In this document: in pieces, positions 25,993 to 53,301 of the stretch
How positions within the stretch are numbered: position 1 is the first letter of the stretch
Layout: the number at the start of each line of letters is the position of its first letter
From: a virus
Reading direction: 5' to 3' (one strand)
DNA length: 64,000 nucleotides
IMG/VR virus record: IMGVR_UViG_3300042453_004886
Coordinates: 64,001-128,000 of that record
Program-made: the position numbers and the translations under genes
The notes under the pieces: generated by a model
What the model saw: only the letters and a program-made list of their open reading frames with translations
Databases searched by the model: none
Told to the model about the DNA's origin: nothing

Positions 25993-26005
25993 AAATACTC
26001 CTAAT

Positions 26006-27133: not shown

Positions 27134-28840
27134 TTACTCCTTTACTGGCGGCTTAGGCGTAGCCTGATTTTGCTGAGGACCCGGCGCAGGGTTTGCAGCA
27201 CCCGGCTGAATGCCCTTGGCAATAGAAGCCATGTTTTCCCGATGACGATAGCGAGCTTCTGAGTTTTTCATATTAAAATCCTGGGAAGCTTTTTCACTAT
27301 CCATTTTTTGCTTATCTTTGAGCATCTTTGCTTTGGTAGCCAAATCTTGTTTCTTGACTTCCAGATCACGATCTTTTTGACTGACAGACTCTACGCTAGC
27401 TTTTGCTCTGACCATGGCAGCGTCTGCCTTGATCTTGTCGTTATCAACCTTCTTGACAGGAGCCATAAGGATCTTCTTTTGGTCTTCCTGACTGAGGATG
27501 GGCTTGAGCGTCTTGGAGGGCAAGCCAAACATCTCTCGAACTTCGTTGAGATCCTGCTCGTCTGCAGGGTTGAGGTAACCATTTTTGACCAGCTTATCAA
27601 ACACACTTGCCAGAACCGTACTGGTGGCTGGGTCAAAGGGCTCAATGATAAACTCGCCGGGATCTGTATTGTCAAAGTTCAAGCGAATCATCTGACCGAT
27701 GACCTGTTCACAGAACGGCTCCACGATTTCTTTTGCAAGTGCTTGAATCATGAGCTTGAAAACATTCCAGTGAGTCTGACCAGGATTGCTTAGTCCAGCT
27801 GAGCCTTCTTCTAGTAGAAGCTGCGGAATAAGTAATCCCCTGAATATTGCTCTGTTGTAATAATTAATTGCATCCAAGAATACTGTACCAAAATTGTTTC
27901 CAGTTGTCAGAGTATCAATCTTGATATCGTCTTGCATCGAAGGACGCTGGAAAACAAGAGCAGTTCCTCGATGCATCTCTGCCAGAGCTGCTTCAGCGGC
28001 CTCTCTGATGGTCATATTGCGTAGTTTTCCAGTTGTATGGTCATGGACACTATCTGGAGTTACACCGGCTGGAACGACCGCGTAGGTGATTGGAGTGCCG
28101 TACCTGTCGAGAGCAACGTTATACATCTCAAGAACGATATCCTTGAGGGTCCAGTTCTTGTAGATCTTCTGAATAGCAGAGGTGCCCGTGTACATGCCTG
28201 AACGCTTGTTATGTACGGTCAAACAAAGCTTGGACTTGGGCAGATGGTTGTAAGTAGCTCCATCTACCCCAATCTGCCAGATACCGCAGTGGGTGATTCC
28301 AGCAGGAGGCGTGTAATAAGGATTATCCAGAGGAGCTTTGTCAATCAATCTTCCGTGAACATTGGGGACAATCAAAATAGACGCAGGGTGGTAGTTAATG
28401 ATTTCATCAATTTGAATCTTGCCTTCTACAAGCTTCCAGAGAACCTCTGAAACGCTGTAACCAAAGATGAGGCTGGATTCCGTGAGTTCACCAATGGCGT
28501 ACTCAACAGTCCCTTCCATTTCATCAATGGCTTTTCTGACAAAAGTTTGAATCTGAGCATCGGGGTGCCGGTATTCCCTGACGGAGGCGATCAGGGAGAG
28601 TTTCATGAACTCGATACCGGCACCCACGGTCTCATCTGTCTTGGCTGCCCGCTCATACTCAATCAGACGACTGAAGTTGGCGGGAGCCATGTACTGAGTA
28701 AGCATTCCCGGGCCACGAGAAAGCGTACTCCCTATCTGGCGTGCGCTGCCGCGAGGAAGGCGATCACGCTCTAATTCAGCACTGGCTGTTTCAGCTGCAG
28801 CTTGTACTGGATTTGCAGTTTCTCGCCTTCTTCTGGCCAT
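27134..28840 (-). CDS. Portal protein (Mu gp29 / DUF935-like)
   Basis: 568 aa; GFSVSE-like GYSVSEVLW, LDRYGTPI, QMIRLNF and REMFGLP portal patterns. Confidence 0.85.
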   Translation of the reverse strand: MARRRRETANPVQAAAETASAELERDRLPRGSARQIGSTLSRGPGMLTQYMAPANFSRLIEYERAAKTDETVGAGIEFMKLSLIASVREYRHPDAQIQTFVRKAIDEMEGTVEYAIGELTESSLIFGYSVSEVLWKLVEGKIQIDEIINYHPASILIVPNVHGRLIDKAPLDNPYYTPPAGITHCGIWQIGVDGATYNHLPKSKLCLTVHNKRSGMYTGTSAIQKIYKNWTLKDIVLEMYNVALDRYGTPITYAVVPAGVTPDSVHDHTTGKLRNMTIREAAEAALAEMHRGTALVFQRPSMQDDIKIDTLTTGNNFGTVFLDAINYYNRAIFRGLLIPQLLLEEGSAGLSNPGQTHWNVFKLMIQALAKEIVEPFCEQVIGQMIRLNFDNTDPGEFIIEPFDPATSTVLASVFDKLVKNGYLNPADEQDLNEVREMFGLPSKTLKPILSQEDQKKILMAPVKKVDNDKIKADAAMVRAKASVESVSQKDRDLEVKKQDLATKAKMLKDKQKMDSEKASQDFNMKNSEARYRHRENMASIAKGIQPGAANPAPGPQQNQATPKPPVKE

Positions 28841-29865: not shown

Positions 29866-32800
29866 ATGGATCGGTTTTCAAATCCAAGAGACTTTAGATA
29901 TAAAGAAGAAATAGAAACAACTTTAGTAAATCTTTTTAATGCTGTCCTTGATGAATACGCTGAGGCAGATGTCTTCTCTGAGGATACGGCTGAAGCTGTA
30001 GACTCGTCTACAAAATTAAAATTAGAAGCTATCCAAGTTATAAAAGACTTTCTCCAGGACAAATATACTGGAAACATCTTTAATGATGTCATGACCCTTA
30101 CTCAAGAGGGTAACTTAAAATTTATTGCAGAAGAACTTATAAATCTGTATGGGGATCCTCAAAACCTCAGCGTACTTTTAGATGATTTTTCTAAAGATGG
30201 TATAAAAGGCACTCACGCTGGCGTAATCAAACATTTATCAAAGTTTTCGCAAGATTTCGTAAAAGCCAGCTTTTTTAGCAGATTCAACGATCAGCAGGAC
30301 TTAAAAGATGACGGCACGTTTGACTACAGGCTTGGTAGGTCTTTTTTAACAAGCAAATACTCAAAACTGAGCCGGGTAAACAGATTAGGAGCACCAGAGC
30401 TCGGGCTAGATGCCAGAGGCATGGTGGACTTTTACAGAAACCTTGTAAAAGACTCTTACAGCCCAGGGCTTGTTTCAGGTTACAACATTGGTCGAGCAAT
30501 GCTTGGATCTATTGTTGGAGCCAAAGAATCCGTACAAATCGGTATGTTCCAGATGGAACACGGGATTCTTCTTGACGCTTTGAGACTTCAACAAGAGCTC
30601 GGTACAAAAGTTAATCTCATGCTCAGCCCACCTCAAAAAAGAGATGGGGCACCCCAAGAAGTCGGATTCTTCAACGTCATTGCCCGAAACTTACTGGGTG
30701 GAACTTCTGTAGAATTTGACAAACAAGTTATGGAGGGCGTAGCAAAAGCCGGTTACGCACACTACAAATTCTTAGGCGTAGACCTTGAGTCCTCCTTGGA
30801 AAACAGAAAAGTCATGATTGGTTCATTCAACATGACCCGAGGCGCTCTGGGCCAGATCATTGACCAGTCTAGAAATTTAGTCAGTAAACACCCGCACAAC
30901 TTTGAGCTTGGGTTCTTGATTGACTACGGGTTGGTTAAAAACCACGGACTTAGAAAGTCTGCATTTGAACGTATAACCAAAGAAGCAAAAGATTACGCTG
31001 GTTGGTTGTTTAATAGAGGAAATGACAGACTAAAACCACTTGGTTACAATCCAGAGCATATTCTATCCGGTCCTCAAACTTATGAAAAAATAAGGCAGGC
31101 GCTAGGATTTGGAGATGGGGTAAACCCTGAAAACTTGACTAAAAAAGTCAATGCTTTCTTTGCTCTGAACGTTATTACAGACCGAGGAATGGGCGTTGAT
31201 AGCGAGGGAAGACCTACAGGTAGATCTATATCTGGAAATAATCCACAGGAAGGTTTTTACCACACACTAGAGCAAAAACTAAGAGCTAGCACAGAATCTA
31301 AAATTACAATCCTTATATCTAGCAACTTTAAAGGAATAAGAAATCAAAACATTGGTGGAAGTCAAGACGCCTTCGAGTCTGGTGCATTTAAAGCACTACA
31401 AGATTTGAAAAGACAGTATCAAGACAGACTAGAAATAATTGAAACTCACGAACACATCCACGCTAAGACAGCTTTGATCTACGGAGAAAGCGGTGAGCTA
31501 GACATTATCAGCGGAAGCGCAAACGTGTCTGGACAAGGTTTTGGTGGTGAATCACAAGACGTAGGCCTATACTTGTCTTCAAAACATTTTGTAAAAGCTT
31601 CCAAGTATTTAGAAAAGCAAGCAGAAAACGTACTTGGTTACTTACAGACCTTGGCCGTAAGACCTGTACTCAGAAAATCACTGGTAAGAGAAAGCAACGC
31701 AATATCAGAAACACTGATGCGTGAGCTCAAGCTTCGTCTGAGCCCAGAACTGATGAAACGAGTTACTTTTACAGCAATTCAGCACATGGGTAGTGATGGA
31801 GAAATTTACCAAAAAGGTACACGAGTAAGTATATCTTTAAACATCAAGGGAGTCAGGGGTAAAGGAAGGTTTTACGTTGCAAACGCTCTCTCATTTGACG
31901 TATTTGAATACCTTGGAGAGCCAACAAGACTGTATATTCCGCAGCTGTACAAGATCATAGACCCAGTTCTGGGTATGCACCCAGAACAGCGCGTGAATAT
32001 GGATCCAAAAGCGCCAGGTTCTACAGGTATGCGTGGAGCGCTTACCGTGCAAGAATTTAGCGCGGCAGCTGTTGTGGCTGCAGGTATTGATTCTGCATAC
32101 AGTCAGCTAAACTCTGAGGCAGCAAAACTTACTGGATCCTACAGCGAACATATTTTAGATAAAACTGTGTTTGCAAGAATGATAAAAAAATCTATGAAGG
32201 AAGGCTTCAGAGAAACCTTTAAAAACTTTGAAGGTCTTCCCCTTGGCCAGTCTTCTCACGCAAGATCTTTCAAAAGACTTATCTTTGGCTTGACTGTTAG
32301 AGAACTATCAAAAGGTACGAGCTTATCTGAGACCGAGAAAAAGGTTTTACTTGAGCAAGCAAGGCTGATGGGCCTTAACAAGACTGAGTCTGGTTTAGTT
32401 TCAAGAATACTTAGAAAGGTAGCCGCGTTATTTGGGTTTAAAACACCGGATACTAAAGTTGCTTCTCTCTTGGATCTTTCTGATTACCCTGAAGTAGACC
32501 CACACACTCTCGATAGAAGCTTTTACTTGGATGAATTTGATTACGATACAGATTTGATGGGTAATAAAATACAGCACAAAGCAAATGCTCCCAGCGAAGT
32601 TATACGTGTACTCGAAAACGGAACCCGAGTAGAAAAATCAAAATTAAGGTTCACCGTACTTGCTCAGAGTCTAAGTCACGAAGCTCCTGCAAACATCTTT
32701 ATAACAGAAGGTTTTAACGAGCTTTACGCGTTTAACTACGATTCAACTGCAGAAACTCTCTACGGTTTTCTAAACGCCGCTAAACCAGATGCTCTACCAC

Positions 32801-35800
32801 AGCGTCAGCAGAACATGTTGGGTTCTGACACTGGTTTACTTACAGTTACGGGTAGTGCGGCAGAATATATTAAAAAAGTAAAACTAAAAATAAAAGGACC
32901 TGAAAAGGACTCAGCAGGAAACGTTTTAGAATCTCGTGCAAGGTTTGGAAACAGATTTAACATCCTACTTATGAATGGTATGGGTGAATCTACCTTCATG
33001 AACTCAAAAGTCATGAATGGTGCCTATGTTACCCGAGAAATCAAAAAAACAAAAAGTTACTTTACAGGTAGCGTAGGTGGTTCGATTACAAATGATGAAA
33101 TATCATTTATTGACCAAAGACTGAAACGGGACAAAGAAGGTAACTGGACTTTATACGATCCAAAAAGTAAAAAATACGAAAGAGTATCCCAAGAGGATGG
33201 AAAACCACTTCTTACAATAGATATAGATCAAAGAAACATAAAGCTTTTGGAATTCTTTAACTCCGAGGGGGTTAAAACCGATTCCACAATGCCAAACCCT
33301 ATCTATGACATGTCCGGGCACAAACTGGAAATCATGGACATACAGACCAGTATGGGTGCCAGTGGAAAGCTCGAAATAGAGTTCAACTACAGGGTTCTTT
33401 CACCTGCAGGCGGATCTATGAGAATCTTGTCCAGCGGTCTAAAAATGGTCACTGTAGGTGTAAAGGGTGGCTTTTTTGATGTCATTGCAGGCGGAATAAA
33501 CAAATCTATTGAGTCTTTAAAATCCGAGGACTTGACCTATAGAACAAAAGAAGGCGGATCCTTAAGTCTTGGTACCTACGGAGAATTCTATCAAGACGTG
33601 TTTACCATGTGGGGTAAAAAAATAGATCCCTCGATGTCTGAAAAACAAAAAGAATCCATGACAGGTGAAATGATTCACTTGATGGTAGGTGAATCTATTG
33701 TAAAAACAGGCGTTGTATTCCTGCAGACAGCTGCAATTCGTTTAGAAGAAAAAAGATTTTACAGCAGGGTTGTTGACATATTTAGTGATGACGCAAAGTT
33801 TGATGTATTTAAAAGAATGCTTGAAAGCTTTGAAAAACAGTCTGAATCAGCAAAAAAAGGTACCGGTATTAATAGGACTATCTTAAAAGGTATCAATCAT
33901 CTTTTAGGAGGCTCTGGCTTAGACGAGGTAAAACTTACCGAAGAGCTTAAACAAAAAAATAGAAAAAATCTACTTAAGTCAATCAGATCAATAAGAAATA
34001 AACTACTTAGAGGTGACGATTTCGGTACCGTACTCAGTAGCATATCGGACAAGCACGCCCTGACAGCGGCAGCAGCCCTGCACGTCATGCAATCCATGCT
34101 GGCTGGCGTAAAAGCAGATAGCTTCATGGAAGAGACGTCCAGGCGTCTTTCTGGTGCGGCTATCACACCGATGAACGAACCTCAATTTGACTTTAGCACG
34201 CCGGTTCCCTTGGTGCTTGACGACGCTTTCTCAGTAAAAGCTTTTCCAATGTCTAACCGCATGAGCGCTCTTATGCCAGGAAACCAAGCTGGTAGCCATA
34301 CTCAAACTGTTCTTGGAGCTCTGTCTAGAAACCTGGGAGTCGAAAAACGAGATAGACAGCTGTCAGAACTTTTTTCGCTGGCTTACTTGGGAGGAAGTGC
34401 AACTCAGATTGCTCAAAGAGCACTCGGTAAAAAATCAAAGGTATCCATCAAAGATCTTAGTTCATTCCATCAAGATTACATGCCAAGTCTTCTTATTGGT
34501 GGTGTCAACTTTGAACCACTTGCTTATGCATTTGCAGGCATGTCCAGAGAACACGAAGCTGCGTTTGGAACTATAACAGATTCAGTAAGAAGGCTTACAT
34601 ATGAAGATCTAAGTCCAGAAGAAATAAAAATAGAAGAAGCTAAGGCTATAGAAGCAGTAAAAAGTTTAGGTACACCAGGTACAAGAATTGCTCAAAACTT
34701 TTCTTCTGGTGTGCAGTCTGCAAGATCAGACATGAAGATATTTGAGCTCATGAAAAAATACAAGGTAGGCTCACCTAGAATGAGAATACCTGTTTTTGAG
34801 TTTACTGCTGTAGGTAGCGGCAGAAACAGATTCAGTGCTTCAAACCTTGTGGCCTATGAAGAGGTCTCGTTGCTCTCTGCTGAAACGTTGACGGAACTTC
34901 AGGGTGTGTTTAGCGACTTTTCCTCCGAAATATTTGACTTGCACGTAGAAGCAATGCGAGGGCTGCACAAAGTAAGAGCTCTCAGGCTTCAAATGGCTGC
35001 TACAGGAGGTTTGGTTACAAAAGAAACCAGAGACCAGTACTTGGGATACTTGGACAAGATAAGAAGGCTTCAAAGCGAAATAGAAAACCTTGCTGCAACA
35101 GATGTTCAAAAATCCGGAGCAAACATTATTGGAGGCTTTGCTGTAATTGCTAACTTTATACCTGGCTTTCACAACATGAAGCTAGGTGAAGATCAAAACA
35201 TAAGGACTTTTGAAACTTCAATCATAGTTGGTGACGAAGTCATGATGAGAGTCATGAACAAAGCAGAAAAAGCTATGAAAGCAGCAGACTCTCTTGTAGA
35301 TAGAAAAGAGTTCAAAGAAAAGCTATCAAAAAAAGCGCAGAAAGCTATGGATAACCATCTTAAAAAAGTAACAAAAGCTGCAGATGTAAAGTTTGAAGCT
35401 GCCTTGCTTGAAAGCACGGATGACGCAAAAGGATACACTTCTAAAAAATCAGGTGTAGGTAAGATCCTTGAAGGATTTACCAATCTTGGTGCTGACTACT
35501 ACAAAAAAATGAGTACTATTTCGTCAACTTCCACATTCTTGAATAGTTTAATAAACATAAGTGAAGCATTTGAAACTATTTACGGAGTTCAGATATCTGG
35601 AAAAACTAATATTGATGACGTTGTAAAAACTTTTACAAGATCAGACGATACTAGTTATTTCCGTACACAGGGCTCTCAAGATTTTTCACAAAACATTCAA
35701 CAGCTAAAAGCTTTAAAGCACGCTCAATCTGTACTTGGAACAGGGACAAGTACATACCTAGACAGTGAGCTACAAGTTCACAAAGAAAACATTCTAAAAG

Positions 35801-38800
35801 GTGTAGCTAATACAATCAAAGCACTCCAAAACGAAAAGAAATACGGTCAAGAAGTAGCTACACTAGCAAAATCATTTGAAGCTCTAAGAAAAGACCTTTT
35901 CTGGGTTAATCGAGTAAAAGAACTTAAAAAGATTGGCGAGGGCGGAGAGTTTGAAAGCGTTCAGGAAGCAAGAGATATTATCTTTAATAAGTTATCAAAA
36001 GTAACCGATTTTATAAGATACTTTGAAGATACCCCAAGACTAGGACTGGACAGAGATATAATTCTTCAAAGATTAAGGAAAGACAGAGATAAACTATTAA
36101 AAGAAAAATCAATCGTTGACACAATTATTAAAAAAGAACAAAGAATTATAGACAACGAAGATAAAGTAAAAAATATAATACGTTCCATACAAAAAAAGAG
36201 TCAAGGATCTACTCTTGGTGAAGTTTTAAGTGAAAGAACAAAAGTTACAGAAGAAAACGGAGAAAAAAAGAAGTCTGTATCAACAGAAGTTATTGGATCC
36301 TTTGGTCAAGCAAACGTTGACTTGTTACGGGTACAACTAAGCATATTTGAAAACAAAGCCAGAATGGCCGGGCTGTCTAAGGGTGTAGCAGACGTTCTTC
36401 ACGACACAATAAGAATGAAGAAGTTTGAAATTGCACTCTACGAAAATAGATTAAACCCTGCTGACTTAAGAAAAGGTATAGATACTTTAAAAAATCTAAT
36501 TAACTCAACAAATAATATGAGCGATAAAAAGTATTACGGAAAAATGCTTGATGTTGCTCAGTACAGGTTAGAAGTATCTACAGGCACTAAACGTAGTAAA
36601 AACAACCTTATAAAGAGAAGCGCAGAAGACGTATCTCATGCTCTCTATGCAGCCGGATTTAGCGTTCTTCAAGCTGTGGAAGATGAGTCTTCTCAAAACT
36701 CATTTGGCAGTGAAGACGAAACTGTAAAATATGTAAGAAAAGTTCAAAACCTTCTTGGTGTTTCTAATGTAAAAAATGCACTTCAACTAAGAAGTTACTT
36801 AAGAGGCATAGGGCTAGAATCTGCTTACAGCAGAGCGGGTGCTCCACTTGGATCTGAAGGTGGTGTCAAGTCTGCTCCTATATTCTCAATAAGAGAAGGA
36901 AATAGAATATTCAGACAGCTTGGTACAAGTTTTGAACTTGATGAAAAAGCCAATAGACGTTCTATATTCTTACACATGAGCGGAATGGCTCTTAATCTGG
37001 GTGACTTTGACGGTGACGTTGCAATTCTCACAACTATTGAAAGATACACATTCCTTGAACACTTAAAGCACAAACTCGGTGGAGAAGATAACCTTATTGA
37101 CGTAGAAAGATCTGCAAAAGAACTCATCAAGCAGCTTGAGCAAGCGGGTGCAGATAAAGGCACCATAGATGAATATAGGCTTCTTATAAGCAAACAACGA
37201 GATCCACTTACTAATAACTTGCTAAACCTGAAAGAAGAATATTTAAATCTAAAAACTTCTGTTACGGACTCAGCAAGAAGACTTGTAAGCACTCACATTG
37301 CCGAATACTGGGGTCTTGGAGAGAATGGTCTTTCAAAGCTTGCAGCAAACTATTATGGTAACGCTTACACGGATCCTGATGCTGACAAAGAACTTCTTGA
37401 ACAAAGACTTGCTGTCAAGCTCAATAAGTTCTCGAGTGATATGTACAGCAGCCTTCGCGAAAAAGCATCCAAACTCATAGATAAAAAGATAGCTCAATCA
37501 GACAATTTTGATAAGACTGCAAAAGCTTATGAAGCTCTTCAAGATAACGAAGAATACAGAAAGCATGTAAGAGAGTGGGTTAATAAAGATTCAGGAGCTC
37601 TTGTTGAAGAAAGTTTGGGTGATTTAAAAAACATTTTCAGCACAATAGCCGGTGTTGAGATGTCAGCAGATGAGATTTTAAGATTTGGTATCAAGACTGC
37701 TTTTGCATCTACAAAACTGATTGGTAACTTCTCTAATTTGCAAAATACCCAGCACGCACTATCCACCATGAGCAAGTTTGCAAGTCAAAAATTTTACACT
37801 GACGTTATAAACACATATGCAAATGTAAGTGGTGGGGACATCAGAGCAGTTGCTCCAGAAATTGAGTCCCACTACCAGCAGCTTCAAAAAGAAAAGCAAG
37901 AAACGTTAAATATTATTGTTAGCAGTAATCAGGGTTTCATGCAAAGACTGCAGCAGGCAACTCGTGATGCAATCAAGCCAAAAACTTCAGGTGCTACAAG
38001 CGAATCCAATAAAGGTGTCCTGCAAGAGCTTTATGAAGATAGCGTACTCATTCGAGCTATTGATGCTTCTGTAGCTCTTGTAACGGGTAAATCTTTATTT
38101 GGAAATTCTGTTAACTACAGTTTTAACAGCGCAAACGAACAAAAAATTCTTCGTAGCCTGAATGTTAACGAACTTATCAAGATTGAAACTACACCAGATG
38201 GTTCAACTCGAGCAACCTTAAAAACCGACTACGATTCAAGCTTAAAGTTTATTGTAGACGAATTGCTTGATCCTCTCGTGCGTGCTTCCAAAGACGAGCA
38301 CAGAGCAAGGGCTCTTTTACAAGAACGCTGGAAAGGAAAAGAACTAGACGCAGCTCAAAAAGACGCTTTGACCAACATAGATATCCAAGCAGAAACTCAA
38401 GCACTCATGTATGGAAAACTTCTTATAAACCAGTTCCAAGACATCAAGAGAATTTTGAAATACAGAAAAGCAGCTGAGTCCGCCGGGGAGGACGGATTTG
38501 AAAGAGCTCGATTCGGATTATCCAGACAGCTTAAACTTGTGTTCTTGCAAGAACACATGCGAGGTGGTCGCCTCAATACACCAGAAGCATTCCAGCGCGT
38601 TGTAGGAGACGTTTATCAAGATTACGCAAAAGCTGAGATGCTTGATTCTCTTGAATCCGATGCAAGAGCACTCGACCCCACAGGAAGGCTTTACGACAGC
38701 TTGCTTCCGGCTTTCAGTAAATATGCTCAGGGTGAAAATGAACTTGAAATTTATAAAGCCCTCGTTCGTAAAAACCCGGAACAATACACGGCTCTAGGAA

Positions 38801-39759
38801 ATATTCACATGGCGCTGGTAGAAGCCGCCACTGGTCAGAATCCTTTGGAAACCGTACAGCAAGTCATGCAGCTCAGAGAAGAAAAAGTAAAAGAAGTTTA
38901 TGCTGGACAAATCGAGAAAAAGATAGAAGCAGTCGGTAAAGCTAAAACGGTTGTATCGATGGCTATAGGAGGTTTCCTTGTAATGGGCGGTTTGGCCGCA
39001 ACAGAAGCTCACGCCGCAACAACTGATAAAGATAAAGAATCACCCTTCAGGGATAAAAAAGATTCTCTTACAAAAGTTATTACTGAAACCATCTTTAACT
39101 GGGAACCCCATTTAACCGCTGCTTCTATATACTCCCAGCAAGGGTTTGATACCAATTCTAAACTTGTTGCAATCGCTGGCTTAACCGCAACCATGGCTGC
39201 AGCTCATGTAGCAACTGGTTTTTCTGAAAGACTCGTCAAGAAAGCAGGATTCAGATCTGCAGACGGAATGACCTTTAATAAAAACTTGGAACACGCGGGC
39301 GGTTTGCTTGGAGTAGTTTCTGCTGTATTTGCAGGAAGTGCTATTTCAGGAATTCAAGAAGAATTCATGAAGCGCGAAATGAGAACCCCTGTCAGCAATC
39401 TTGCTACTCAAATAACTGAAGAACTTGCTACCCGAGACGCAATTATCATGGCTTCTTCTGAAGATATTACTGATCTAACAGACCAAGAAGATGCAGTAGT
39501 TGAACTAGCTTACGATGAAAATGGAGATGCTATTCCTGTTCCAGAAGGACTTACTAGAGATGAGGCGCTTAACATGAGTGACGAAAATCACTCAAGCGTT
39601 CCTATGATGCTTACAGAGCGCGACAACATGGGTATTCCAGAAGTCTACAAGAATCCCGTGCTTGATGAAAATGGAAAAGTTACACGTCCTTCAAGAACAC
39701 CGCAAGAAAACTACAAAGATGCCCTTAGAGAGCACAGAATTAGAACTGGTGGTTTGTAG
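29866..39759 (+). CDS. Giant virion protein: PLD-family domain + two-barrel virion RNA polymerase + probable tape-measure/membrane segments
   Basis: ATG at 29866 and TAG at 39757-9 are on the + strand (track label wrong). HYKFLGVD..IGSFN (H299), HAKTALIY..SGSAN (H532), SRAGAP (R2323), NLGDFDGD (D2380), three hydrophobic segments after about aa 3025; next to the G/GT chaperone. Confidence 0.8.
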   Translation: MDRFSNPRDFRYKEEIETTLVNLFNAVLDEYAEADVFSEDTAEAVDSSTKLKLEAIQVIKDFLQDKYTGNIFNDVMTLTQEGNLKFIAEELINLYGDPQNLSVLLDDFSKDGIKGTHAGVIKHLSKFSQDFVKASFFSRFNDQQDLKDDGTFDYRLGRSFLTSKYSKLSRVNRLGAPELGLDARGMVDFYRNLVKDSYSPGLVSGYNIGRAMLGSIVGAKESVQIGMFQMEHGILLDALRLQQELGTKVNLMLSPPQKRDGAPQEVGFFNVIARNLLGGTSVEFDKQVMEGVAKAGYAHYKFLGVDLESSLENRKVMIGSFNMTRGALGQIIDQSRNLVSKHPHNFELGFLIDYGLVKNHGLRKSAFERITKEAKDYAGWLFNRGNDRLKPLGYNPEHILSGPQTYEKIRQALGFGDGVNPENLTKKVNAFFALNVITDRGMGVDSEGRPTGRSISGNNPQEGFYHTLEQKLRASTESKITILISSNFKGIRNQNIGGSQDAFESGAFKALQDLKRQYQDRLEIIETHEHIHAKTALIYGESGELDIISGSANVSGQGFGGESQDVGLYLSSKHFVKASKYLEKQAENVLGYLQTLAVRPVLRKSLVRESNAISETLMRELKLRLSPELMKRVTFTAIQHMGSDGEIYQKGTRVSISLNIKGVRGKGRFYVANALSFDVFEYLGEPTRLYIPQLYKIIDPVLGMHPEQRVNMDPKAPGSTGMRGALTVQEFSAAAVVAAGIDSAYSQLNSEAAKLTGSYSEHILDKTVFARMIKKSMKEGFRETFKNFEGLPLGQSSHARSFKRLIFGLTVRELSKGTSLSETEKKVLLEQARLMGLNKTESGLVSRILRKVAALFGFKTPDTKVASLLDLSDYPEVDPHTLDRSFYLDEFDYDTDLMGNKIQHKANAPSEVIRVLENGTRVEKSKLRFTVLAQSLSHEAPANIFITEGFNELYAFNYDSTAETLYGFLNAAKPDALPQRQQNMLGSDTGLLTVTGSAAEYIKKVKLKIKGPEKDSAGNVLESRARFGNRFNILLMNGMGESTFMNSKVMNGAYVTREIKKTKSYFTGSVGGSITNDEISFIDQRLKRDKEGNWTLYDPKSKKYERVSQEDGKPLLTIDIDQRNIKLLEFFNSEGVKTDSTMPNPIYDMSGHKLEIMDIQTSMGASGKLEIEFNYRVLSPAGGSMRILSSGLKMVTVGVKGGFFDVIAGGINKSIESLKSEDLTYRTKEGGSLSLGTYGEFYQDVFTMWGKKIDPSMSEKQKESMTGEMIHLMVGESIVKTGVVFLQTAAIRLEEKRFYSRVVDIFSDDAKFDVFKRMLESFEKQSESAKKGTGINRTILKGINHLLGGSGLDEVKLTEELKQKNRKNLLKSIRSIRNKLLRGDDFGTVLSSISDKHALTAAAALHVMQSMLAGVKADSFMEETSRRLSGAAITPMNEPQFDFSTPVPLVLDDAFSVKAFPMSNRMSALMPGNQAGSHTQTVLGALSRNLGVEKRDRQLSELFSLAYLGGSATQIAQRALGKKSKVSIKDLSSFHQDYMPSLLIGGVNFEPLAYAFAGMSREHEAAFGTITDSVRRLTYEDLSPEEIKIEEAKAIEAVKSLGTPGTRIAQNFSSGVQSARSDMKIFELMKKYKVGSPRMRIPVFEFTAVGSGRNRFSASNLVAYEEVSLLSAETLTELQGVFSDFSSEIFDLHVEAMRGLHKVRALRLQMAATGGLVTKETRDQYLGYLDKIRRLQSEIENLAATDVQKSGANIIGGFAVIANFIPGFHNMKLGEDQNIRTFETSIIVGDEVMMRVMNKAEKAMKAADSLVDRKEFKEKLSKKAQKAMDNHLKKVTKAADVKFEAALLESTDDAKGYTSKKSGVGKILEGFTNLGADYYKKMSTISSTSTFLNSLINISEAFETIYGVQISGKTNIDDVVKTFTRSDDTSYFRTQGSQDFSQNIQQLKALKHAQSVLGTGTSTYLDSELQVHKENILKGVANTIKALQNEKKYGQEVATLAKSFEALRKDLFWVNRVKELKKIGEGGEFESVQEARDIIFNKLSKVTDFIRYFEDTPRLGLDRDIILQRLRKDRDKLLKEKSIVDTIIKKEQRIIDNEDKVKNIIRSIQKKSQGSTLGEVLSERTKVTEENGEKKKSVSTEVIGSFGQANVDLLRVQLSIFENKARMAGLSKGVADVLHDTIRMKKFEIALYENRLNPADLRKGIDTLKNLINSTNNMSDKKYYGKMLDVAQYRLEVSTGTKRSKNNLIKRSAEDVSHALYAAGFSVLQAVEDESSQNSFGSEDETVKYVRKVQNLLGVSNVKNALQLRSYLRGIGLESAYSRAGAPLGSEGGVKSAPIFSIREGNRIFRQLGTSFELDEKANRRSIFLHMSGMALNLGDFDGDVAILTTIERYTFLEHLKHKLGGEDNLIDVERSAKELIKQLEQAGADKGTIDEYRLLISKQRDPLTNNLLNLKEEYLNLKTSVTDSARRLVSTHIAEYWGLGENGLSKLAANYYGNAYTDPDADKELLEQRLAVKLNKFSSDMYSSLREKASKLIDKKIAQSDNFDKTAKAYEALQDNEEYRKHVREWVNKDSGALVEESLGDLKNIFSTIAGVEMSADEILRFGIKTAFASTKLIGNFSNLQNTQHALSTMSKFASQKFYTDVINTYANVSGGDIRAVAPEIESHYQQLQKEKQETLNIIVSSNQGFMQRLQQATRDAIKPKTSGATSESNKGVLQELYEDSVLIRAIDASVALVTGKSLFGNSVNYSFNSANEQKILRSLNVNELIKIETTPDGSTRATLKTDYDSSLKFIVDELLDPLVRASKDEHRARALLQERWKGKELDAAQKDALTNIDIQAETQALMYGKLLINQFQDIKRILKYRKAAESAGEDGFERARFGLSRQLKLVFLQEHMRGGRLNTPEAFQRVVGDVYQDYAKAEMLDSLESDARALDPTGRLYDSLLPAFSKYAQGENELEIYKALVRKNPEQYTALGNIHMALVEAATGQNPLETVQQVMQLREEKVKEVYAGQIEKKIEAVGKAKTVVSMAIGGFLVMGGLAATEAHAATTDKDKESPFRDKKDSLTKVITETIFNWEPHLTAASIYSQQGFDTNSKLVAIAGLTATMAAAHVATGFSERLVKKAGFRSADGMTFNKNLEHAGGLLGVVSAVFAGSAISGIQEEFMKREMRTPVSNLATQITEELATRDAIIMASSEDITDLTDQEDAVVELAYDENGDAIPVPEGLTRDEALNMSDENHSSVPMMLTERDNMGIPEVYKNPVLDENGKVTRPSRTPQENYKDALREHRIRTGGL

Positions 39760-39760
39760 T

Positions 39761-40045
39761 TTAAGTAAAAAGCAAGAATGCGATAGCTTCCTGCATCTCT
39801 CTGAGGAAAACTTTGTCTTGATCGGTAAGCTCTGATTTCTTCAACCGTTTTAAACGCTCTAGAAGGTGCCTTGGAGTACCCTTGTATACCGAAACCATAC
39901 GCTCAACTGTATCTCCGATTTTACGGCCTTCCAGGACGGAATAATCGCGAATTGCCTCTGCGAACGATGCTGCAATGCTTGCATTGAACTGAACTTTGTC
40001 TTTTGGACCTTTTGCGTACTTACTTCTGTTATTTTCTGAGCTCAT
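39761..40045 (-). CDS. Ribbon-helix-helix type DNA-binding protein
   Basis: KVQFNASI-AASFAEAIRDYSVLEGRKIGDTVERMV fits beta-helix-helix (CopG/Arc-like). Confidence 0.6.
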   Translation of the reverse strand: MSSENNRSKYAKGPKDKVQFNASIAASFAEAIRDYSVLEGRKIGDTVERMVSVYKGTPRHLLERLKRLKKSELTDQDKVFLREMQEAIAFLLFT

Positions 40046-40915: not shown

Positions 40916-41022
40916 GCCTCACGACCGGCCCAAACTCCCCATGGGCCTTGGTAACCCATGGGGACGCGACAGGTTTAGTAGTCTCATCCTATTAGAAAAA
41001 CTACTTTTCTTTTTCCTTTTCA

Positions 41023-41092
41023 GAGGGGGTCAGCTTTGCTGACCCCCTTTAAAAAGAGCGACTGGTGCGTACTTAACGTAATAGTCAAACCC
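41023..41092 (+). promoter_or_regulatory. Class-1 hairpin/promoter element, copy 1
   Basis: GGGGGTCAGC-TTT-GCTGACCCCC TTTAAAAAGAGCGACT GGTGC-N18-AAACCC. Confidence 0.7.
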
Positions 41093-41142
41093 TTTTACAG
41101 AGCCACACCTGTGCGTGTGGCCACACTGCAGAGGAGAAAACC

Positions 41143-41640
41143 ATGCAGAAAAAGAAGAAGACCGTCGTCGTCGCTGTGCCCGTCGCCCCCGCCGCCGAGC
41201 CCCGCAAGGGGCTGTTCGCCCGGGTCCTCGAGGCCCTCGGTTTCCGCTCGGCGCCGCTCGTGCGCGACAGCGAGCTCGACCAGCCCAGGCTGTGCCGGAT
41301 GCTCCTTGACAACGCCCTCCGGGGCGAGCGGATGGTGTCGGAGGAGATGCTCAACCGGGGTCGTAAGACCCTGGAGCAGCAGATCCAGGCGGTCAGGGCG
41401 GCTGGGGACTTCCGGGCCCCCGTCGCCACGCCCGTCGCCGTCGCTCCCGTCGCCGTCGCTCCCGCCGCCGCTCCCGCCCGGGTCTGGGGTGTCTTGAACA
41501 CCCTGGATAAGGCACGGCTTCGGGCCTGGTCCCGGGCTTGGTCCGAGGCCCAGGCCGAGGCCCAGCCCGTGGCCGAGCCCGTGGCCGAGCCCGTCGCCAC
41601 CCGGGCCCGGGATGCCCGGGGCCGGTTCGTGAAGGCGTAA
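41143..41640 (+). CDS. Basic Ala/Pro-rich early protein, copy 2
   Basis: GAGGAG RBS; 165-aa paralog ending RDARGRFVKA. Confidence 0.8.
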   Translation: MQKKKKTVVVAVPVAPAAEPRKGLFARVLEALGFRSAPLVRDSELDQPRLCRMLLDNALRGERMVSEEMLNRGRKTLEQQIQAVRAAGDFRAPVATPVAVAPVAVAPAAAPARVWGVLNTLDKARLRAWSRAWSEAQAEAQPVAEPVAEPVATRARDARGRFVKA

Positions 41641-41747
41641 GCCTCACGACCGGCAACAGATCCCCATGGGCCTTGGTAACCCATGGGGACGCGTAGAGGT
41701 TTAGTAGTCTCATCCTATTAGAAAAACTACTTTTCTTTTCCTTTTTA

Positions 41748-41817
41748 GAGGGGGTCAGCTTTGCTGACCCCCTTTAAAAAGAGCGACTGGTGCTTACTGG
41801 AAGTAACAGTCTAACCC
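41748..41817 (+). promoter_or_regulatory. Class-1 element, copy 2
   Basis: Same hairpin, TTTAAAAAGAG, GGTGC-N18-TAACCC. Confidence 0.7.
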
Positions 41818-41855
41818 TTTTGCGGCCATTTTAATCACGAAAGGAGGTGATAAGT

Positions 41856-42011
41856 ATGCGGATGAGCATGGAAGAGAAGTACGTTCGTAGGCGCCAGAAC
41901 CTGGCGCTGTTCGTTCTTCTCGTCCTGTTCCTCGTCGCTGGCGCGATGGAGAACCCCATGGATCGGTTTTCCTTGGGGTCCTCCACGCCCAGCAGCGTGG
42001 AGCAGGACTAA
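41856..42011 (+). CDS. 51-aa single-TM peptide (not in the ORF track)
   Basis: AAGGAGGTGA RBS; MRMSMEEKYVRRRQNLALFVLLVLFLVAGAMENPMDRFSLGSSTPSSVEQD*. Confidence 0.75.
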   Translation: MRMSMEEKYVRRRQNLALFVLLVLFLVAGAMENPMDRFSLGSSTPSSVEQD

Positions 42012-42018
42012 TTGACTT

Positions 42019-42054
42019 CCTACTCGGCGCTAGCGCCGCAATGCGCTGAGTAGG
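42019..42054 (+). terminator. Conserved branched hairpin (copies at 42019, 44818, 49331)
   Basis: CCTACTC-GGCGCTAGCGCC-GCAATGCG-N-TGAGTAGG then CTCTTTTT. Confidence 0.6.
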
Positions 42055-42062
42055 CTCTTTTT

Positions 42063-42136
42063 GAGAGGGTAGTAGCTTCGGCTGCTGCCCTCTTTAAAAA
42101 GAGGGATCGGTGCTTACCCCTTTCTAAGGTCTTACC
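42063..42136 (+). promoter_or_regulatory. Class-1 element, copy 3
   Basis: GAGAGGGTAGTAGC-TTCG-GCTGCTGCCCTCT TTAAAAAGAGGGATC GGTGC-N18-TTACC. Confidence 0.7.
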
Positions 42137-42215
42137 AGGCCTTGCTGTCGCACATTCGTCAGAAATCCCTTTCCCCCCTTTCAGGGGGGATTTTGCCATG
42201 AAAGGAGAAACTACC

Positions 42216-43649
42216 ATGGCAAGCTCAATTCGCGACGCGTTCCTCCCCCTCATTCCGGAGCTGAAGCTCCGGCAGGAGGCGCGGAGGGAAGCCCTCCGCG
42301 CGGACCGCCGGCAGGCCCGGGCAGAGGCCCGAGAGGCCGGCAAGGCCAAGGAGGCGCTCCGGGCGGCTAAGCGGTCCGAGCGCCGCGCCGCCCGCCAGGT
42401 GGCCGCCCATGAGCGCCGCGAGGCCCTCAAGGCGGCCTTTGCAAAGGCCGCCGAGGGCCGCCCCAAGTGGGTCCAGGTCGCCTCCCGGGTGCTACTCATT
42501 CACCCGGACGAGGTCGCTAGACGGCCTCGAAAGGCCGTCCTGGGAGCGCTTCCCACCTGGGCGCTCGTGGACCTGTACTGCCCAGACCCCTTCTGGGAAG
42601 GGGTTATCTGGGAAAACCTCTTCCACGAGGGGGAGGAGCTTATTTCCCGAGAGTTCCTGGAGAAGATCCTCCGGGGCACTTCTTGGAAAAAGCTCCAAGA
42701 GGCTTTTTCCAGATGGTGCCAGCTCGAAAACAGGCCCCCGGAGTGGGAGCCCTACGCGGCGTGGAAGTTCTTTATCTCCGGTGTTTACACGGGGGGCAAG
42801 AAGTTCTTCCCGCTAGCGGGAAGGGTCAGCCACATCCAGGGCATCCTGGAGCACGGCCCAGCGCCGGAAACCCTGTCGGAGGAGGACCTGGATGCCTACG
42901 TCCGGCATCCTGGGGAGTTCAGGCTGAGTGAGCTCCTGGAGAGCGCCGAGGATCGGAAGAACCTCGCGGTTCTCCAAGAGTACCTGGAGCGCCAGCGGGA
43001 GACGTATCTCCCGGAGGAGTTCCGGGAGATCACTGCCAATCAGATCCTCAGCAGGTGGAAGACGCACAAAGACGTGCGCTTCCGCCTGGAAGGGCAGGAG
43101 TGGAGCTCTCCCGACGGGAAGATGGCGGCCCGGTTCTTGCCCAGGACCGACATCAGGGGGCTGCTGGCCGGTGACATCACCGACTGCTGCCAGCACCCTA
43201 TCGGGGCAGGGTCCGAGGCTGCCTGGGACGCGGTCAGGCAGCCCAGCACGGGCAACCTGGCCTTCTTCCGGAAGGGCCGGATTGTGGCATTTACCTGGGT
43301 GTGGGAAGCCCAGGACGGGAGCATGGTGCTTGACTCGATCGAGTACCTGAGCTCCCGCTACATGCCAGAGGTGGCTCAGGCACTTGCTGCTTTTGCAAAG
43401 CAGCTGAGGTGTGAAGGAGTCTCCACCTTTTGGGTTGGGGGCTACTCTGAAGCAGAGCTGGCCTCCCAAGTCCGGGTCCTGGCGGGATTGCTAGGCAGTC
43501 CTCGGTGGGTAAAGGCTTCCCAAGAGGGGGCCTCCCTGAATGGGGAAACTCTCCAGGGCCCCAACCTGGTCCCTTCCGGGGAATTGCCAAAGCCCGTCTT
43601 TTGGATGGGCTACTCGGACCTGCACTACAACATAGTCAGGTTCGATTGA
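42216..43649 (+). CDS. Early protein with a C-terminal GNAT-like domain
   Basis: Start placed at ATG 42216 after AAAGGAG; basic coiled-coil N-terminus; GDITDCCQH..G....A......GNLAFF..GRIVAFTWVW..VLDSIE beta-rich block. Confidence 0.55.
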   Translation: MASSIRDAFLPLIPELKLRQEARREALRADRRQARAEAREAGKAKEALRAAKRSERRAARQVAAHERREALKAAFAKAAEGRPKWVQVASRVLLIHPDEVARRPRKAVLGALPTWALVDLYCPDPFWEGVIWENLFHEGEELISREFLEKILRGTSWKKLQEAFSRWCQLENRPPEWEPYAAWKFFISGVYTGGKKFFPLAGRVSHIQGILEHGPAPETLSEEDLDAYVRHPGEFRLSELLESAEDRKNLAVLQEYLERQRETYLPEEFREITANQILSRWKTHKDVRFRLEGQEWSSPDGKMAARFLPRTDIRGLLAGDITDCCQHPIGAGSEAAWDAVRQPSTGNLAFFRKGRIVAFTWVWEAQDGSMVLDSIEYLSSRYMPEVAQALAAFAKQLRCEGVSTFWVGGYSEAELASQVRVLAGLLGSPRWVKASQEGASLNGETLQGPNLVPSGELPKPVFWMGYSDLHYNIVRFD

Positions 43650-43700
43650 TGGGCTGGAGTTTGGTAGTACCTCCATCAATAAAAACTACCACCTTTTTTA

Positions 43701-43778
43701 GAGGGGCACACAGCTTAGGCTGTGTTGCCCCTCTTTAAAAAGAGGAACTGGTGCGTACTGGACGTATTGGTTTACCCC
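43701..43778 (+). promoter_or_regulatory. Class-1 element, copy 4
   Basis: Hairpin + CCCTCTTTAAAAAGAGG + GGTGC-N18-TACCCC. Confidence 0.7.
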
Positions 43779-43801
43779 TTAGCTCTTGAAAGGAGCTAAA
43801 G

Positions 43802-44227
43802 GTGATCACCGTTTGCAACAAGGAAAACTACCTTATTATTGAGGACGAGGTGCTCGACCTCGTCCGAGGCCAGTACCCCGCAGGAGGGCTGGCCCAAGTC
43901 GTCGGTGCGGAGAGCTCGCACCGGGTCGTCACTCTCCGGGACTGCGGAGACCTAGTGGGCATTTGCCTGCTTGACGTCGAGGAGGCCACGGTCGACGACC
44001 TCGTCGTCAAACCCAGGTACAGAAAGTACCTGGGCGAGATGCTCGCCTCGGTCCGAGAGATCGCCGGAGAAGGGGCTTGGACGGCGTACTGCCGGGCTAA
44101 GACGTCTGCTGTCACCGTTCGGGCTATGGCCCGCAGGGGGCAGCTGAGGCTTCTCCATCTCGGAGAGCCGGAGTACGACGACTACTTTGCCGAAGAGATG
44201 GTGGAGGTAGAGTTTCAGCTACTCTAG
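43802..44227 (+). CDS. GNAT-like acetyltransferase candidate
   Basis: AAAGGAG RBS; DLVGICLL..ATVDDLVVKPRYRKY resembles GNAT motif A. Confidence 0.5.
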   Translation: MITVCNKENYLIIEDEVLDLVRGQYPAGGLAQVVGAESSHRVVTLRDCGDLVGICLLDVEEATVDDLVVKPRYRKYLGEMLASVREIAGEGAWTAYCRAKTSAVTVRAMARRGQLRLLHLGEPEYDDYFAEEMVEVEFQLL

Positions 44228-44262
44228 CCTCCTTCCTGAGTGACTTCCTGAAACCTTTTTTA

Positions 44263-44340
44263 GAGGGGCACACGGCTTAGGCTGTGTTGCCCCTCTTTAA
44301 AAAGAGGGAATGGTGCGTGCATTGGGCAGCACTTAACCCC
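44263..44340 (+). promoter_or_regulatory. Class-1 element, copy 5
   Basis: Hairpin + CCCTCTTTAAAAAGAGGG + GGTGC-N18-AACCCC. Confidence 0.7.
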
Positions 44341-44364
44341 CTTTCATGTTCAGGAAGGATCCAC

Positions 44365-44550
44365 ATGAACATGAATGCCACCCGGAGCGATGTGTTCCGG
44401 GCTGTCGTGCAGGAGAACAAAATCCTGCGCGAGCGTCTTGAGGAATGTCAGAGGTTGATCAATCTCTTTTCGGACCTCGAGACGCGCCTTGCTGAAGAAA
44501 GGGCAAGGCAAATTGAGTTTGAACGGGAGCTCTTCTGGAGCTGCCGTTAA
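44365..44550 (+). CDS. Small coiled-coil early protein (61 aa)
   Basis: Start moved to ATG 44365 after AGGAAGG; the track start lies inside the promoter element. Confidence 0.7.
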   Translation: MNMNATRSDVFRAVVQENKILRERLEECQRLINLFSDLETRLAEERARQIEFERELFWSCR

Positions 44551-44563
44551 AACTCACCTTTTT

Positions 44564-44632
44564 GAGAGGGGGCAGGGATGCCCCCTCTTTAAAAAGAGGG
44601 ACCGGTGCGTACTGGATGCATTGGTTTACCCC
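44564..44632 (+). promoter_or_regulatory. Class-1 element, copy 6
   Basis: GAGAGGGGGCA-GGGA-TGCCCCCTCT TTAAAAAGAGGGACC GGTGC-N18-TACCCC. Confidence 0.7.
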
Positions 44633-44672
44633 TTTGTTACGCGGCCATCTCTAAAAGAAAGGAGGTGATTAC

Positions 44673-44801
44673 ATGATGGAGTCGGATTTCCTCCGGGCCG
44701 AAGCGGCCCTCGAGGAGGCGATCCTCCGGGCTGAAGAAGCTGCCGAAACGGCGGCAGCCCGGGAGGAGTGGGCCGCTGCTTTCGCGGCGGTCTGGGGTTA
44801 G
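44673..44801 (+). CDS. 42-aa acidic helical leader peptide (not in the ORF track)
   Basis: AAGGAGGTGA RBS; MMESDFLRAEAALEEAILRAEEAAETAAAREEWAAAFAAVWG*. Confidence 0.8.
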   Translation: MMESDFLRAEAALEEAILRAEEAAETAAAREEWAAAFAAVWG

Positions 44802-44861
44802 TTTTTTCGTTTCTTTTCCTACTCGGCGCTAGCGCCGCAATGCGATGAGTAGGCTCTTTTT

Positions 44862-44937
44862 GAGAGGGTAGTAGCTTTAGCTGCTGCCCTCTTTAAAAAG
44901 AGGGACCGGTGCGTACTAGCACTAAAGGTTTCCTCCC
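44862..44937 (+). promoter_or_regulatory. Class-1 element, copy 7
   Basis: Hairpin + CCCTCTTTAAAAAGAGGGACC GGTGC-N18-TCCTCCC. Confidence 0.65.
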
Positions 44938-45011
44938 AGAAACAAAGGAAGATGAGCTCACTCGGTGAGATCTTCCTTGCTGTCAGAGACAGCAATGTTG
45001 CGTACATAAAA

Positions 45012-45072
45012 GCGGGGTCTAACCCCTCTTTAAAAAGAGGAATTGGTGCGTACACGCATTAAATGTCTTCCT
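45012..45072 (+). promoter_or_regulatory. Class-1 element, copy 8 (short hairpin)
   Basis: GGGG-TCTAA-CCCC TCTTTAAAAAGAGGAATT GGTGC-N18-TTCC. Confidence 0.65.
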
Positions 45073-45171
45073 TTTTTCCCCGGATTTTTTATCGCGTAAT
45101 CCGGTGATCGCCATATACTTGGCGCCCTTTGCTCGGGGAGAGAGCGTTTTCAGCGCATGAGGAGGAAACCA

Positions 45172-48975: not shown

Positions 48976-48980
48976 CAAAC

Positions 48981-49055
48981 TGATCGGGAACTTGGCGGCT
49001 TTGTCTTAAGAACGCACAGAAAGTGCAAAAGCAAAGCTGCTAAGTTACCTGATCA
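48981..49055 (+). ncRNA. Conserved 3' structured RNA element, copy 1
   Basis: Long stem (AACTTGGCGGCTTTG / CAAAGCTGCTAAGTT, two G-U pairs) capped by GAACGCAC-AGAAA-GTGCAA. Confidence 0.55.
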
Positions 49056-49080
49056 AGACAACTAAATAACCTTTTTAACA

Positions 49081-49154
49081 GAGGGGGCTGGTTCATTCCA
49101 GTACCCCTCTTTAAAAAGAGGGACCGGTGCGTCGGTGCGTCCAAGGTGCAACCC
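49081..49154 (+). promoter_or_regulatory. Class-1 element, copy 9
   Basis: Hairpin + CCCTCTTTAAAAAGAGGGACC GGTGC-N18-CAACCC. Confidence 0.7.
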
Positions 49155-49190
49155 TTTTGCGGCCACTTAATCACGAAAGGAGGTGATTAC

Positions 49191-49310
49191 ATGATGGAAG
49201 ACTTCCTCGCGGAGGCCATCCTCCGGGCTGAAGAAGCTGCCGAAACGGCAGCAGCCCGGGAGGAGTGGGCAGCTGCTTTTGAAGCCCTGGACCAGTGGGT
49301 CTGGGGCTAG
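49191..49310 (+). CDS. 39-aa acidic leader peptide, paralog of 44673..44801 (not in the ORF track)
   Basis: AAGGAGGTGA RBS; MMEDFLAEAILRAEEAAETAAAREEWAAAFEALDQWVWG*. Confidence 0.8.
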   Translation: MMEDFLAEAILRAEEAAETAAAREEWAAAFEALDQWVWG

Positions 49311-49374
49311 TTTCTTGTTTGTTTTCCTTTCCTGCTCGGCGCTAGCGCCGCAATGCGTTGAGTAGGCTCTTTTT

Positions 49375-49449
49375 GAGAGGGTAGTAGCTTCGGCTGCTGC
49401 CCTCTTTAAAAAGAGGGACCGGTGCGTCGGTGCGTCCAAGGTGCAACCC
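49375..49449 (+). promoter_or_regulatory. Class-1 element, copy 10
   Basis: Same hairpin as copy 3 + GGTGC-N18-CAACCC. Confidence 0.7.
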
Positions 49450-49548
49450 TTTTTGCAGGTTTTTCTCGTGGAACCTGATGATCGCCATACAGCTGGCGCC
49501 TTTTGGTCGGGGAGTGACCGCATGCTAGTCGAAAGAAAAGGTAGGACT

Positions 49549-53127: not shown

Positions 53128-53132
53128 CTGTG

Positions 53133-53200
53133 TCACAAATAAACTCGAGCTATCCCACGAACGCACACGAAGTGCAAGGGATGCTCGAGTTTTGCTGTGA
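53133..53200 (+). ncRNA. Conserved 3' structured RNA element, copy 2
   Basis: Different stem sequence (AAACTCGAGC/GCTCGAGTTT, ATCCC/GGGAT) with the same cap GAACGCAC-ACGAA-GTGCAA. Confidence 0.55.
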
Positions 53201-53227
53201 TTCGATCAACTAAATAACTTTTTAACA

Positions 53228-53301
53228 GGGGGGCTTGGTTCATTCCAATGCCCCTCTTTAAAAAGGGTAACTGGTGCGTACAAAAACTCACAATCTACCC
53301 C
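53228..53301 (+). promoter_or_regulatory. Class-1 element, copy 11
   Basis: Hairpin + CCCCTCTTTAAAAAGGG + GGTGC-N18-TACCCC. Confidence 0.7.

Follow-up and report, generated by a model that had tools for sequence, protein, structure and literature searches.

A giant protein of a freshwater phage with a PLD-type domain and a putative single-chain two-barrel RNA polymerase

A giant open reading frame beside the portal gene

The DNA considered here is a 64,000-nucleotide stretch (the window) taken from positions 64001-128000 of one viral contig of 194,626 bp, IMG/VR record IMGVR_UViG_3300042453_004886, which was rated 100% complete by CheckV. At positions 29866..39759 of the window (+ strand) lies an open reading frame (ORF) of 3297 amino acids (aa), whose product is referred to below as the giant protein. 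An initial reading made from the letters alone (the sequence-only reading) had described it as a virion protein fusing a phospholipase D (PLD)-type domain, a two-barrel RNA polymerase (RNAP) and probable tape-measure and membrane segments. The ORF was found as described and is open under translation table 11; GAGG stands 8 nt upstream of its ATG, and its start lies 155 bp from a structural operon on the opposite strand. DNA of the giant gene was found in lake and freshwater metagenomes, and no RNA dataset containing it was present among the sequencing runs listed.

The structural operon is headed by a Mu-like portal gene (27134..28840, - strand) whose adjacency to the giant gene is conserved. 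Wherever gene order is visible in relatives, a Mu-like portal, small genes and a gene of ~220-250 aa on one strand are followed by the giant gene on the other. A HMMER search with a profile of aa 2140-3010 identified a homology family of nine proteins among 1.84 billion representatives, seven of them full-length (3065-3809 aa). The other two, P0005 and P0008, are truncated where their contigs end, which is why they were not taken for a split or short family form. The existence of homologues of this length in the same gene neighbourhood indicates that the giant gene is real. Family members are only 25-43% identical. No further homologues were obtained from word-based searches of 5.8 billion clusters, from a second search with the family alignment (0 new members) or from a scan of IMG/VR. 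The polymerase region and the locus had no match in 50,697 phage records by tblastn and megablast, and no paralogue was detected by phmmer among all ORFs of the phage's own genome.

An N-terminal PLD-type domain

The Pfam family PLDc_2 matched the giant protein in two stretches (48.7 bits versus a cut-off of 27), which bears out the PLD domain suggested by the sequence-only reading. The first half-domain (aa 216-329; 30511..30852, +) was matched with an E-value of 8.8e-13 and contains an HxK(x4)D...GSxN motif (30760-30831, +), in which H299, K301 and D306 are invariant in the seven full-length members. The second half-domain (~aa 470-560; 31273..31545, +) corresponds to the second Pfam stretch; its HxK...GSxN motif (31459-31524, +) has conserved His and Lys (H532 and K534) and a Tyr at the Asp position. 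Both strings noticed earlier, HYKFLGVD...IGSFN at H299 and HAKTALIY...SGSAN at H532, are thus present, including the Tyr-for-Asp replacement.

PLDc_2 was matched in six of the seven full-length members, and both HxK dyads are present in all seven. The His and Lys of both half-sites, together with the GSxN turns, were retained despite the low identity, whereas the second-site Asp is absent throughout the family, being replaced by Tyr or another residue. In its two HxK half-sites with GSxN and its above-cut-off Pfam match, the giant protein resembles the PLD superfamily, from which its second site differs in having no motif Asp. The conservation of His, Lys and GSxN in both half-sites indicates that the N-terminal region (aa ~200-620) is probably an active PLD-superfamily phosphodiesterase. 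Pfam PLDc_2 covers Nuc-type nucleases, cardiolipin synthases and poxvirus K4-type enzymes. No solved PLD structure was matched in PDB sequence and profile searches, no NCBIfam subfamily was assigned to the domain, and no report of a PLD-RNAP fusion was found in the literature searched.

Signature residues of a two-barrel RNA polymerase

The two-barrel RNAP superfamily is characterized by eight invariant residues, namely three loop Asp, R446 and P448 of Rpb1, and D837, K979 and K987 of Rpb2 (Ruprich-Robert and Thuriaux 2010, PMC2919709). All eight have invariant candidates in the giant protein: D2380, D2382, D2384, R2323, P2327, E1041, R1186 and K1193. Conservation and hhalign delineated a candidate catalytic barrel of beta-prime type, SRAGAP...RRS...GDFDGD...ERY (36829..37050, +), within which lie SRAGAP (36829-36846, +) and GDFDGD (residues 2379-2384; 37000-37017, +). 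RAGxP (R2323 and P2327) and GDxDGD (D2380, D2382 and D2384) are invariant in all nine proteins, and the 72-residue stretch that holds them contains 19 residues invariant across the nine members. By chance, DxDGD would be expected ~0.05 times per protein of the giant's size and composition. DFDGD was also considered as an EF-hand or calcium loop, but its Gly does not stand where such a loop requires it, and this reading was rejected.

The beta-like part was traced to an acidic motif, FNILLMNGMGES (residues 1031-1042; 32956..32991, +), and a candidate basic loop, SMRILSSGLK (residues 1184-1193; 33415..33444, +). G1038, E1041, R1186 and K1193 are invariant in the eight proteins that cover this part. 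The assignment of the acidic motif is tentative, with E1041 as a candidate counterpart of Rpb2-D837 and E. coli beta D814. At the first basic position an Arg is also found in QDE-1, whose basic-loop residues are R738 and K743 (PMC2919709). These two motifs, as well as SRAGAP at R2323 and NLGDFDGD at D2380, had been picked out by the sequence-only reading, and all four were located at those residues.

Between the two parts lies a variable coiled-coil insertion (~aa 1800-2140; 35263..36285, +), which is ~450 aa longer in the homologue P0003. Downstream of the candidate catalytic barrel, two invariant helical motifs, FASTKLIGNxxNxQ and LQQxxRxAIKxK (37702..37983, +), may be the equivalents of the bridge helix and trigger loop. 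In hhalign comparisons, the GDFDGD loop was aligned with rpoC 445-469 as well as with the catalytic loops of Thermus phage P23-45 gp96 and of two RNAP-like genes that stand in tandem farther downstream in the window.

A flap/wall-like domain flanked by the candidate acidic motif and basic loop

The sequence-only reading had proposed structure prediction of the polymerase region as a check for a pair of double-psi beta barrels. The AlphaFold model of aa 880-1800 (mean pLDDT 51.7) contained one confident beta domain, aa 1055-1179 (33028..33402, +; pLDDT ~80), which comes after the acidic motif and before the basic loop and is flap/wall-like. Its single best PDB match was an RNAP flap; with Foldseek, the second-largest subunits of Pol III were returned at probabilities of 0.69-0.97 and insignificant E-values. 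No barrel pair was recovered in the models of aa 880-1800 or aa 2140-3010, so that only the flap/wall-like domain came out of this check.

The spacing around the domain is close to that of cellular enzymes. In yeast Rpb2, D837 is followed after a gap of 16 residues by the flap/wall (853-972), after 7 more by K979 and after another 8 by K987. In E. coli beta, the corresponding series is D814, a gap of 16, flap/wall 830-1057, a gap of 8, K1065, a gap of 8 and K1073. In the giant protein it reads E1041, a gap of 14, flap/wall-like domain 1055-1179, a gap of 7, R1186, a gap of 7 and K1193. The two basic residues thus follow the flap-like domain at distances of 7 and 14 residues, as compared with 7 and 15 in yeast and 8 and 16 in E. 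coli. The register of E1041 is set by this structure-guided spacing only. A flap/wall domain inserted in the putative beta-like barrel is what marks a beta subunit of the multisubunit type, and according to the YonO paper flap/wall-type domains are dispensable additions.

Several results weigh against a two-barrel polymerase. The hhalign P values for the GDFDGD loop were only 0.004-0.14 and not significant; for the beta-like part, comparison with rpoB and others gave nothing, and even another register was offered. No RNAP match to the giant protein was obtained in Pfam, PHROGs, NCBIfam or PDB sequence and profile searches. The PDB searches returned a coiled-coil match only, PHROGs, NCBIfam and Pfam searches with fragments recovered only PLDc_2, and Pfam RNAP domains had 0 matches in the whole phage genome. 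R2323 and P2327 are spaced R-x-x-x-P (R-A-G-x-P) rather than R-x-P, R2323 precedes the first Asp (D2380) by 57 residues instead of the ~35 expected, and the acidic position carries Glu (E1041), not Asp. In the AlphaFold model of aa 2140-3010 (mean pLDDT 57), the DFDGD region had a pLDDT below 50 and no beta strands, and hence no double-psi barrel was seen. Both motif regions remained below pLDDT 50 in models built on alignments of 8-9 sequences, and fold searches of the poorly modelled C-terminal model yielded helical hairpins only. A complex prediction of the two putative barrel regions scored 0.00 with the fold of the partner uncertain, which counts neither way, and a feature search of the ESM Atlas gave no usable match.

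These results raise the question of whether the giant protein might be no polymerase at all, but a giant internal or ejection protein in which PLD is the sole enzyme, DxDGD a metal-binding or structural element and the flap-like domain a beta sandwich that arose by convergence. Such an explanation has to contend with eight signature positions that are invariant, in the right order and suitably spaced around a domain that matches an RNAP flap. Sequence similarity among phage two-barrel RNAPs is in any case confined to the DxDxD region (PMC10770324), and the genome carries further RNAP-like genes as well as repeats that resemble promoters. A protein with no polymerase is accordingly judged quite improbable. 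No RNA_pol domain of the T7/N4 type was found with Pfam at E-values up to 1 in the giant protein or up to 0.05 in family members.

We consider it highly probable that the giant protein contains a two-barrel RNAP. From the conserved motifs and the model, a single-chain enzyme of the beta/beta-prime type very probably spans aa ~900-3000, split by the variable coiled coil. The RNAP proposed by the sequence-only reading thus stands as far as the conserved catalytic residues and the structural match of the flap/wall are concerned, whereas its DFDGD barrel was not recovered in the model.

The giant protein and the tail tape measure

The sequence-only reading had further suggested that an injected virion RNAP also serves as the tail tape measure, as does gp96 of P23-45, and this precedent is real. 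C-terminal hydrophobic segments, as found in many tape measures, and a long helical or coiled-coil middle would suit such a role. The three segments noted near the C-terminus were found at aa 3026-3048, 3100-3119 and 3143-3165, followed by an acidic DENGDxIP tail (38941..39360, +). Only ~290 residues follow the polymerase region of the giant protein.

The arrangement of the structural genes argues otherwise. The presence of a tail sheath gene (10669-13287, -) indicates a contractile tail, and a 1343-aa gene (5961..9992, -) occupies the tape-measure slot, after the sheath and a tube-like gene (10085-10642, -) and before the baseplate genes, which include a gp25-like wedge subunit (630-1115, -) and spike genes. 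The candidacy of the 1343-aa gene comes from position only, as its ORF had no family match. The giant gene neighbours the portal and runs divergently from the tail module, to which it does not belong; it is thus not where a tape-measure gene would be placed. Furthermore, the length of the coiled coil differs by ~450 aa among close relatives. A role of the giant protein as tape measure is therefore not supported by the gene arrangement, and an ejected RNAP doubling as one is very improbable.

A GC-rich block with repeated elements and two RNAP-like genes

Immediately after the giant gene, the GC content jumps from ~40%, the value of the giant ORF and the structural genes, to 55-61% for ~20 kb (window positions 40000-60000), a block of ORFs with no Pfam matches. 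The same jump occurs on the contig of a relative (L005:5000-13113), where an RNAP-like gene with GDGDGD lies downstream, indicating a conserved feature rather than a chimeric assembly. In the early-type block of that relative, two 96%-identical 50-nt copies (L005:6232-6281 and 6729-6778) carry a tRNA T-arm-like GGTTCGATTCC and may be tRNA genes or fragments.

Two RNAP-like genes of ~1250 aa each are arranged in tandem in the GC-rich block. The first (45157-48975, +) has RAP 35 residues before GDHDGD, which is the spacing of E. coli beta-prime, and the second (49441-53127, +) has GDFDGE. Neither had a Pfam or PDB sequence match, and neither is a paralogue of the giant protein by the phmmer comparison described above. 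They are candidate non-virion RNA polymerases. A composite element, consisting of a T-run, a variable hairpin, CCTCTTTAAAAAGAG and GGTGCGTAC, was found in 11 copies (41044..53267, +) and nowhere else in the 194.6-kb genome. Several copies stand directly upstream of the two RNAP-like genes, and the elements may serve a phage polymerase as promoters or as combined promoter-terminator units.

Delivery of the giant protein with the virion

The giant protein has 0 Cys in 3297 aa, in comparison to an average of 0.88% in the phage proteome (P ~2e-13). Across its family there are 0-1 Cys per protein, whereas the two tandem RNAP-like proteins contain 0.7%. The lack of cysteine, the placement on the portal side, the C-terminal hydrophobic helices, and the 11 elements and two RNAP-like genes downstream together suggest delivery with the virion. 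By analogy with known virion polymerases, it is plausible that the giant protein is packaged and injected to start phage transcription.

A point against packaging is that the giant gene and the putative early block share a strand, which leaves room for an intracellular role. The protein could be a two-barrel RNAP with a PLD domain that acts only within the cell, for instance in middle or late transcription, or as some other nucleotide polymerase anchored at the membrane. The giant gene also has its own Shine-Dalgarno sequence and an AT-rich upstream region, and transcription of the two tandem RNAP-like genes could be left to the host RNAP. Such a protein would have to be reconciled with the complete lack of cysteine where the tandem RNAP-like proteins are at a normal cytoplasmic level, and with a GC content (~40%) that resembles the structural genes and not the early block. 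The portal-side placement in all relatives, as well as a size and terminal hydrophobic helices typical of ejected proteins, also speaks for packaging, and we regard an unpackaged polymerase as unlikely.

The interpretation favoured on balance, with moderate confidence, is a virion-carried protein that combines a PLD phosphodiesterase, a single-chain two-barrel RNAP, three C-terminal membrane-type helices and an acidic tail. It would be expressed along with the structural genes, enter the head close to the portal and be ejected with the DNA through the contractile tail in a largely unfolded state, a passage favoured by the complete absence of cysteine. The C-terminal helices would then anchor it at the cytoplasmic membrane, where its polymerase would start at the 11 hairpin-containing elements and transcribe the neighbouring GC-rich block, whose two RNAP-like proteins would take over later transcription. 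The PLD module may cut a phosphodiester bond at entry, in either a membrane phospholipid or a nucleic acid. The logic is that shown experimentally for Thermus phage P23-45, in which the virion enzyme transcribes pre-early genes, including that of a non-virion polymerase, from a repeated motif. The complete scheme is more doubtful: a flap-bearing giant RNAP shot through a contractile tail, with PLD acting at entry on membrane lipid or host nucleic acid and the membrane-held enzyme reading hairpin promoters, would give a freshwater myovirus lineage a fully host-independent cascade of three polymerases.

Comparison with known virion RNA polymerases

Giant virion-delivered two-barrel RNAPs are known from two lineages only, represented by gp66 of crAss-like phages and gp96 of P23-45, each of which changed views on how far this ancient enzyme can be remodelled. 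Both had been cited as precedents by the sequence-only reading, gp96 as a fusion to the tape measure, and the published descriptions agree with it. The giant protein shares with gp96 a giant size, virion-type character, membrane segments and what is very probably a DFDGD two-barrel polymerase. As with gp96 and the non-virion RNAP gp64 of P23-45, further RNAP-like genes lie nearby and are preceded by a repeated DNA motif, in line with the logic of a polymerase cascade. However, there is no detectable sequence similarity to gp96. The polymerase of gp96 is N-terminal, whereas that of the giant protein is central, is accompanied by flap/wall-like and PLD domains and has no metallopeptidase. Furthermore, gp96 is a flat enzyme with no clamp, located in the tail of a siphovirus, whereas the giant protein belongs to a myovirus with a separate tape-measure candidate.

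The gp66 protein of phi14:2 (crAss-like, PDB 6VR4) is a large single-chain virion protein with a DFDxD motif and two barrels, as is proposed for the giant protein. It differs in belonging to a QDE-1-like clade and a podovirus-like virion and has no sequence match to the giant protein; no report of a PLD fusion of gp66 was found in the literature searched.

Compared with the beta and beta-prime subunits of cells and jumbo phages (Rpb2 and Rpb1), the giant protein has a flap/wall-like domain between acidic motif and basic loop at matching spacing, and its beta-like module precedes a beta-prime-like module with a NADFDGD-like loop. It differs from the cellular subunits in forming one chain, in having neither Pfam-level similarity nor zinc-binding cysteines, and in its R-x-x-x-P and its Glu at the Rpb2-D837 position.

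The virion RNAP of coliphage N4 has ~3500 aa and uses DNA hairpin promoters. It resembles the giant protein in its size, in ejection, which is probable for the protein studied here too, and in the hairpins of the candidate promoters. N4, in contrast, is a podovirus, and its enzyme is a T7-like right-hand polymerase of unrelated fold.

If the favoured interpretation is correct, the giant protein would represent a third lineage, one whose sequence shows no detectable relation to gp66 or gp96. Among virion two-barrel RNAPs it would be the first from a phage with a contractile tail, the first that keeps a cell-like flap/wall domain and the first in which the polymerase is joined to another enzyme, namely a PLD phosphodiesterase. 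It would also raise the questions of how a 370-kDa protein passes through a tail tube, why PLD is needed at entry and whether the hairpin elements form a new promoter class. With nine members among 1.84 billion representatives, the family is so rare that routine pipelines are unlikely to annotate it.

Neighbouring genes and other features of the genome

The giant gene is met tail to tail by a convergent gene of 94 aa (39761..40045, -), the two stop codons being 1 nt apart. Wherever gene order is visible, tail-to-tail partners of 86-101 aa are also found in relatives (L001:16328-16615, L004:7037-7333 and L005:3110-3370). The 94-aa protein is 67-89% identical among phages whose giant proteins share only ~27-36%. 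It had no Pfam or PHROG match, and its pattern, a KVQFNASI strand followed by two helices with G-x-T, is ribbon-helix-helix-like. Judged from this pattern, the protein may regulate the adjacent early block.

Directly upstream of the giant gene, two ORFs overlap in different frames (28886-29362, - and 29052-29711, -). The 219-aa ORF beside the giant gene has conserved counterparts of 221-249 aa in relatives. The structural operon also includes genes for a prohead protease (18498-20135, -) and the major head protein (17302-18468, -). The nearest relatives of the portal in the phage collection are from Microcystis and Microcoleus phages, at 27-30% identity.

Two other giant ORFs are encoded by the same phage outside the window, at genome positions 18870-26873 (-; 2667 aa) and 48917-58543 (-; 3208 aa). 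Neither showed similarity to the giant protein by phmmer, and the 2667-aa ORF contains a single cysteine. The contig ends (1-196 and 194431-194626) form a repeat of ~195 bp whose copies differ at a single position; this indicates a circular or terminally redundant assembly, although the record is listed as linear.

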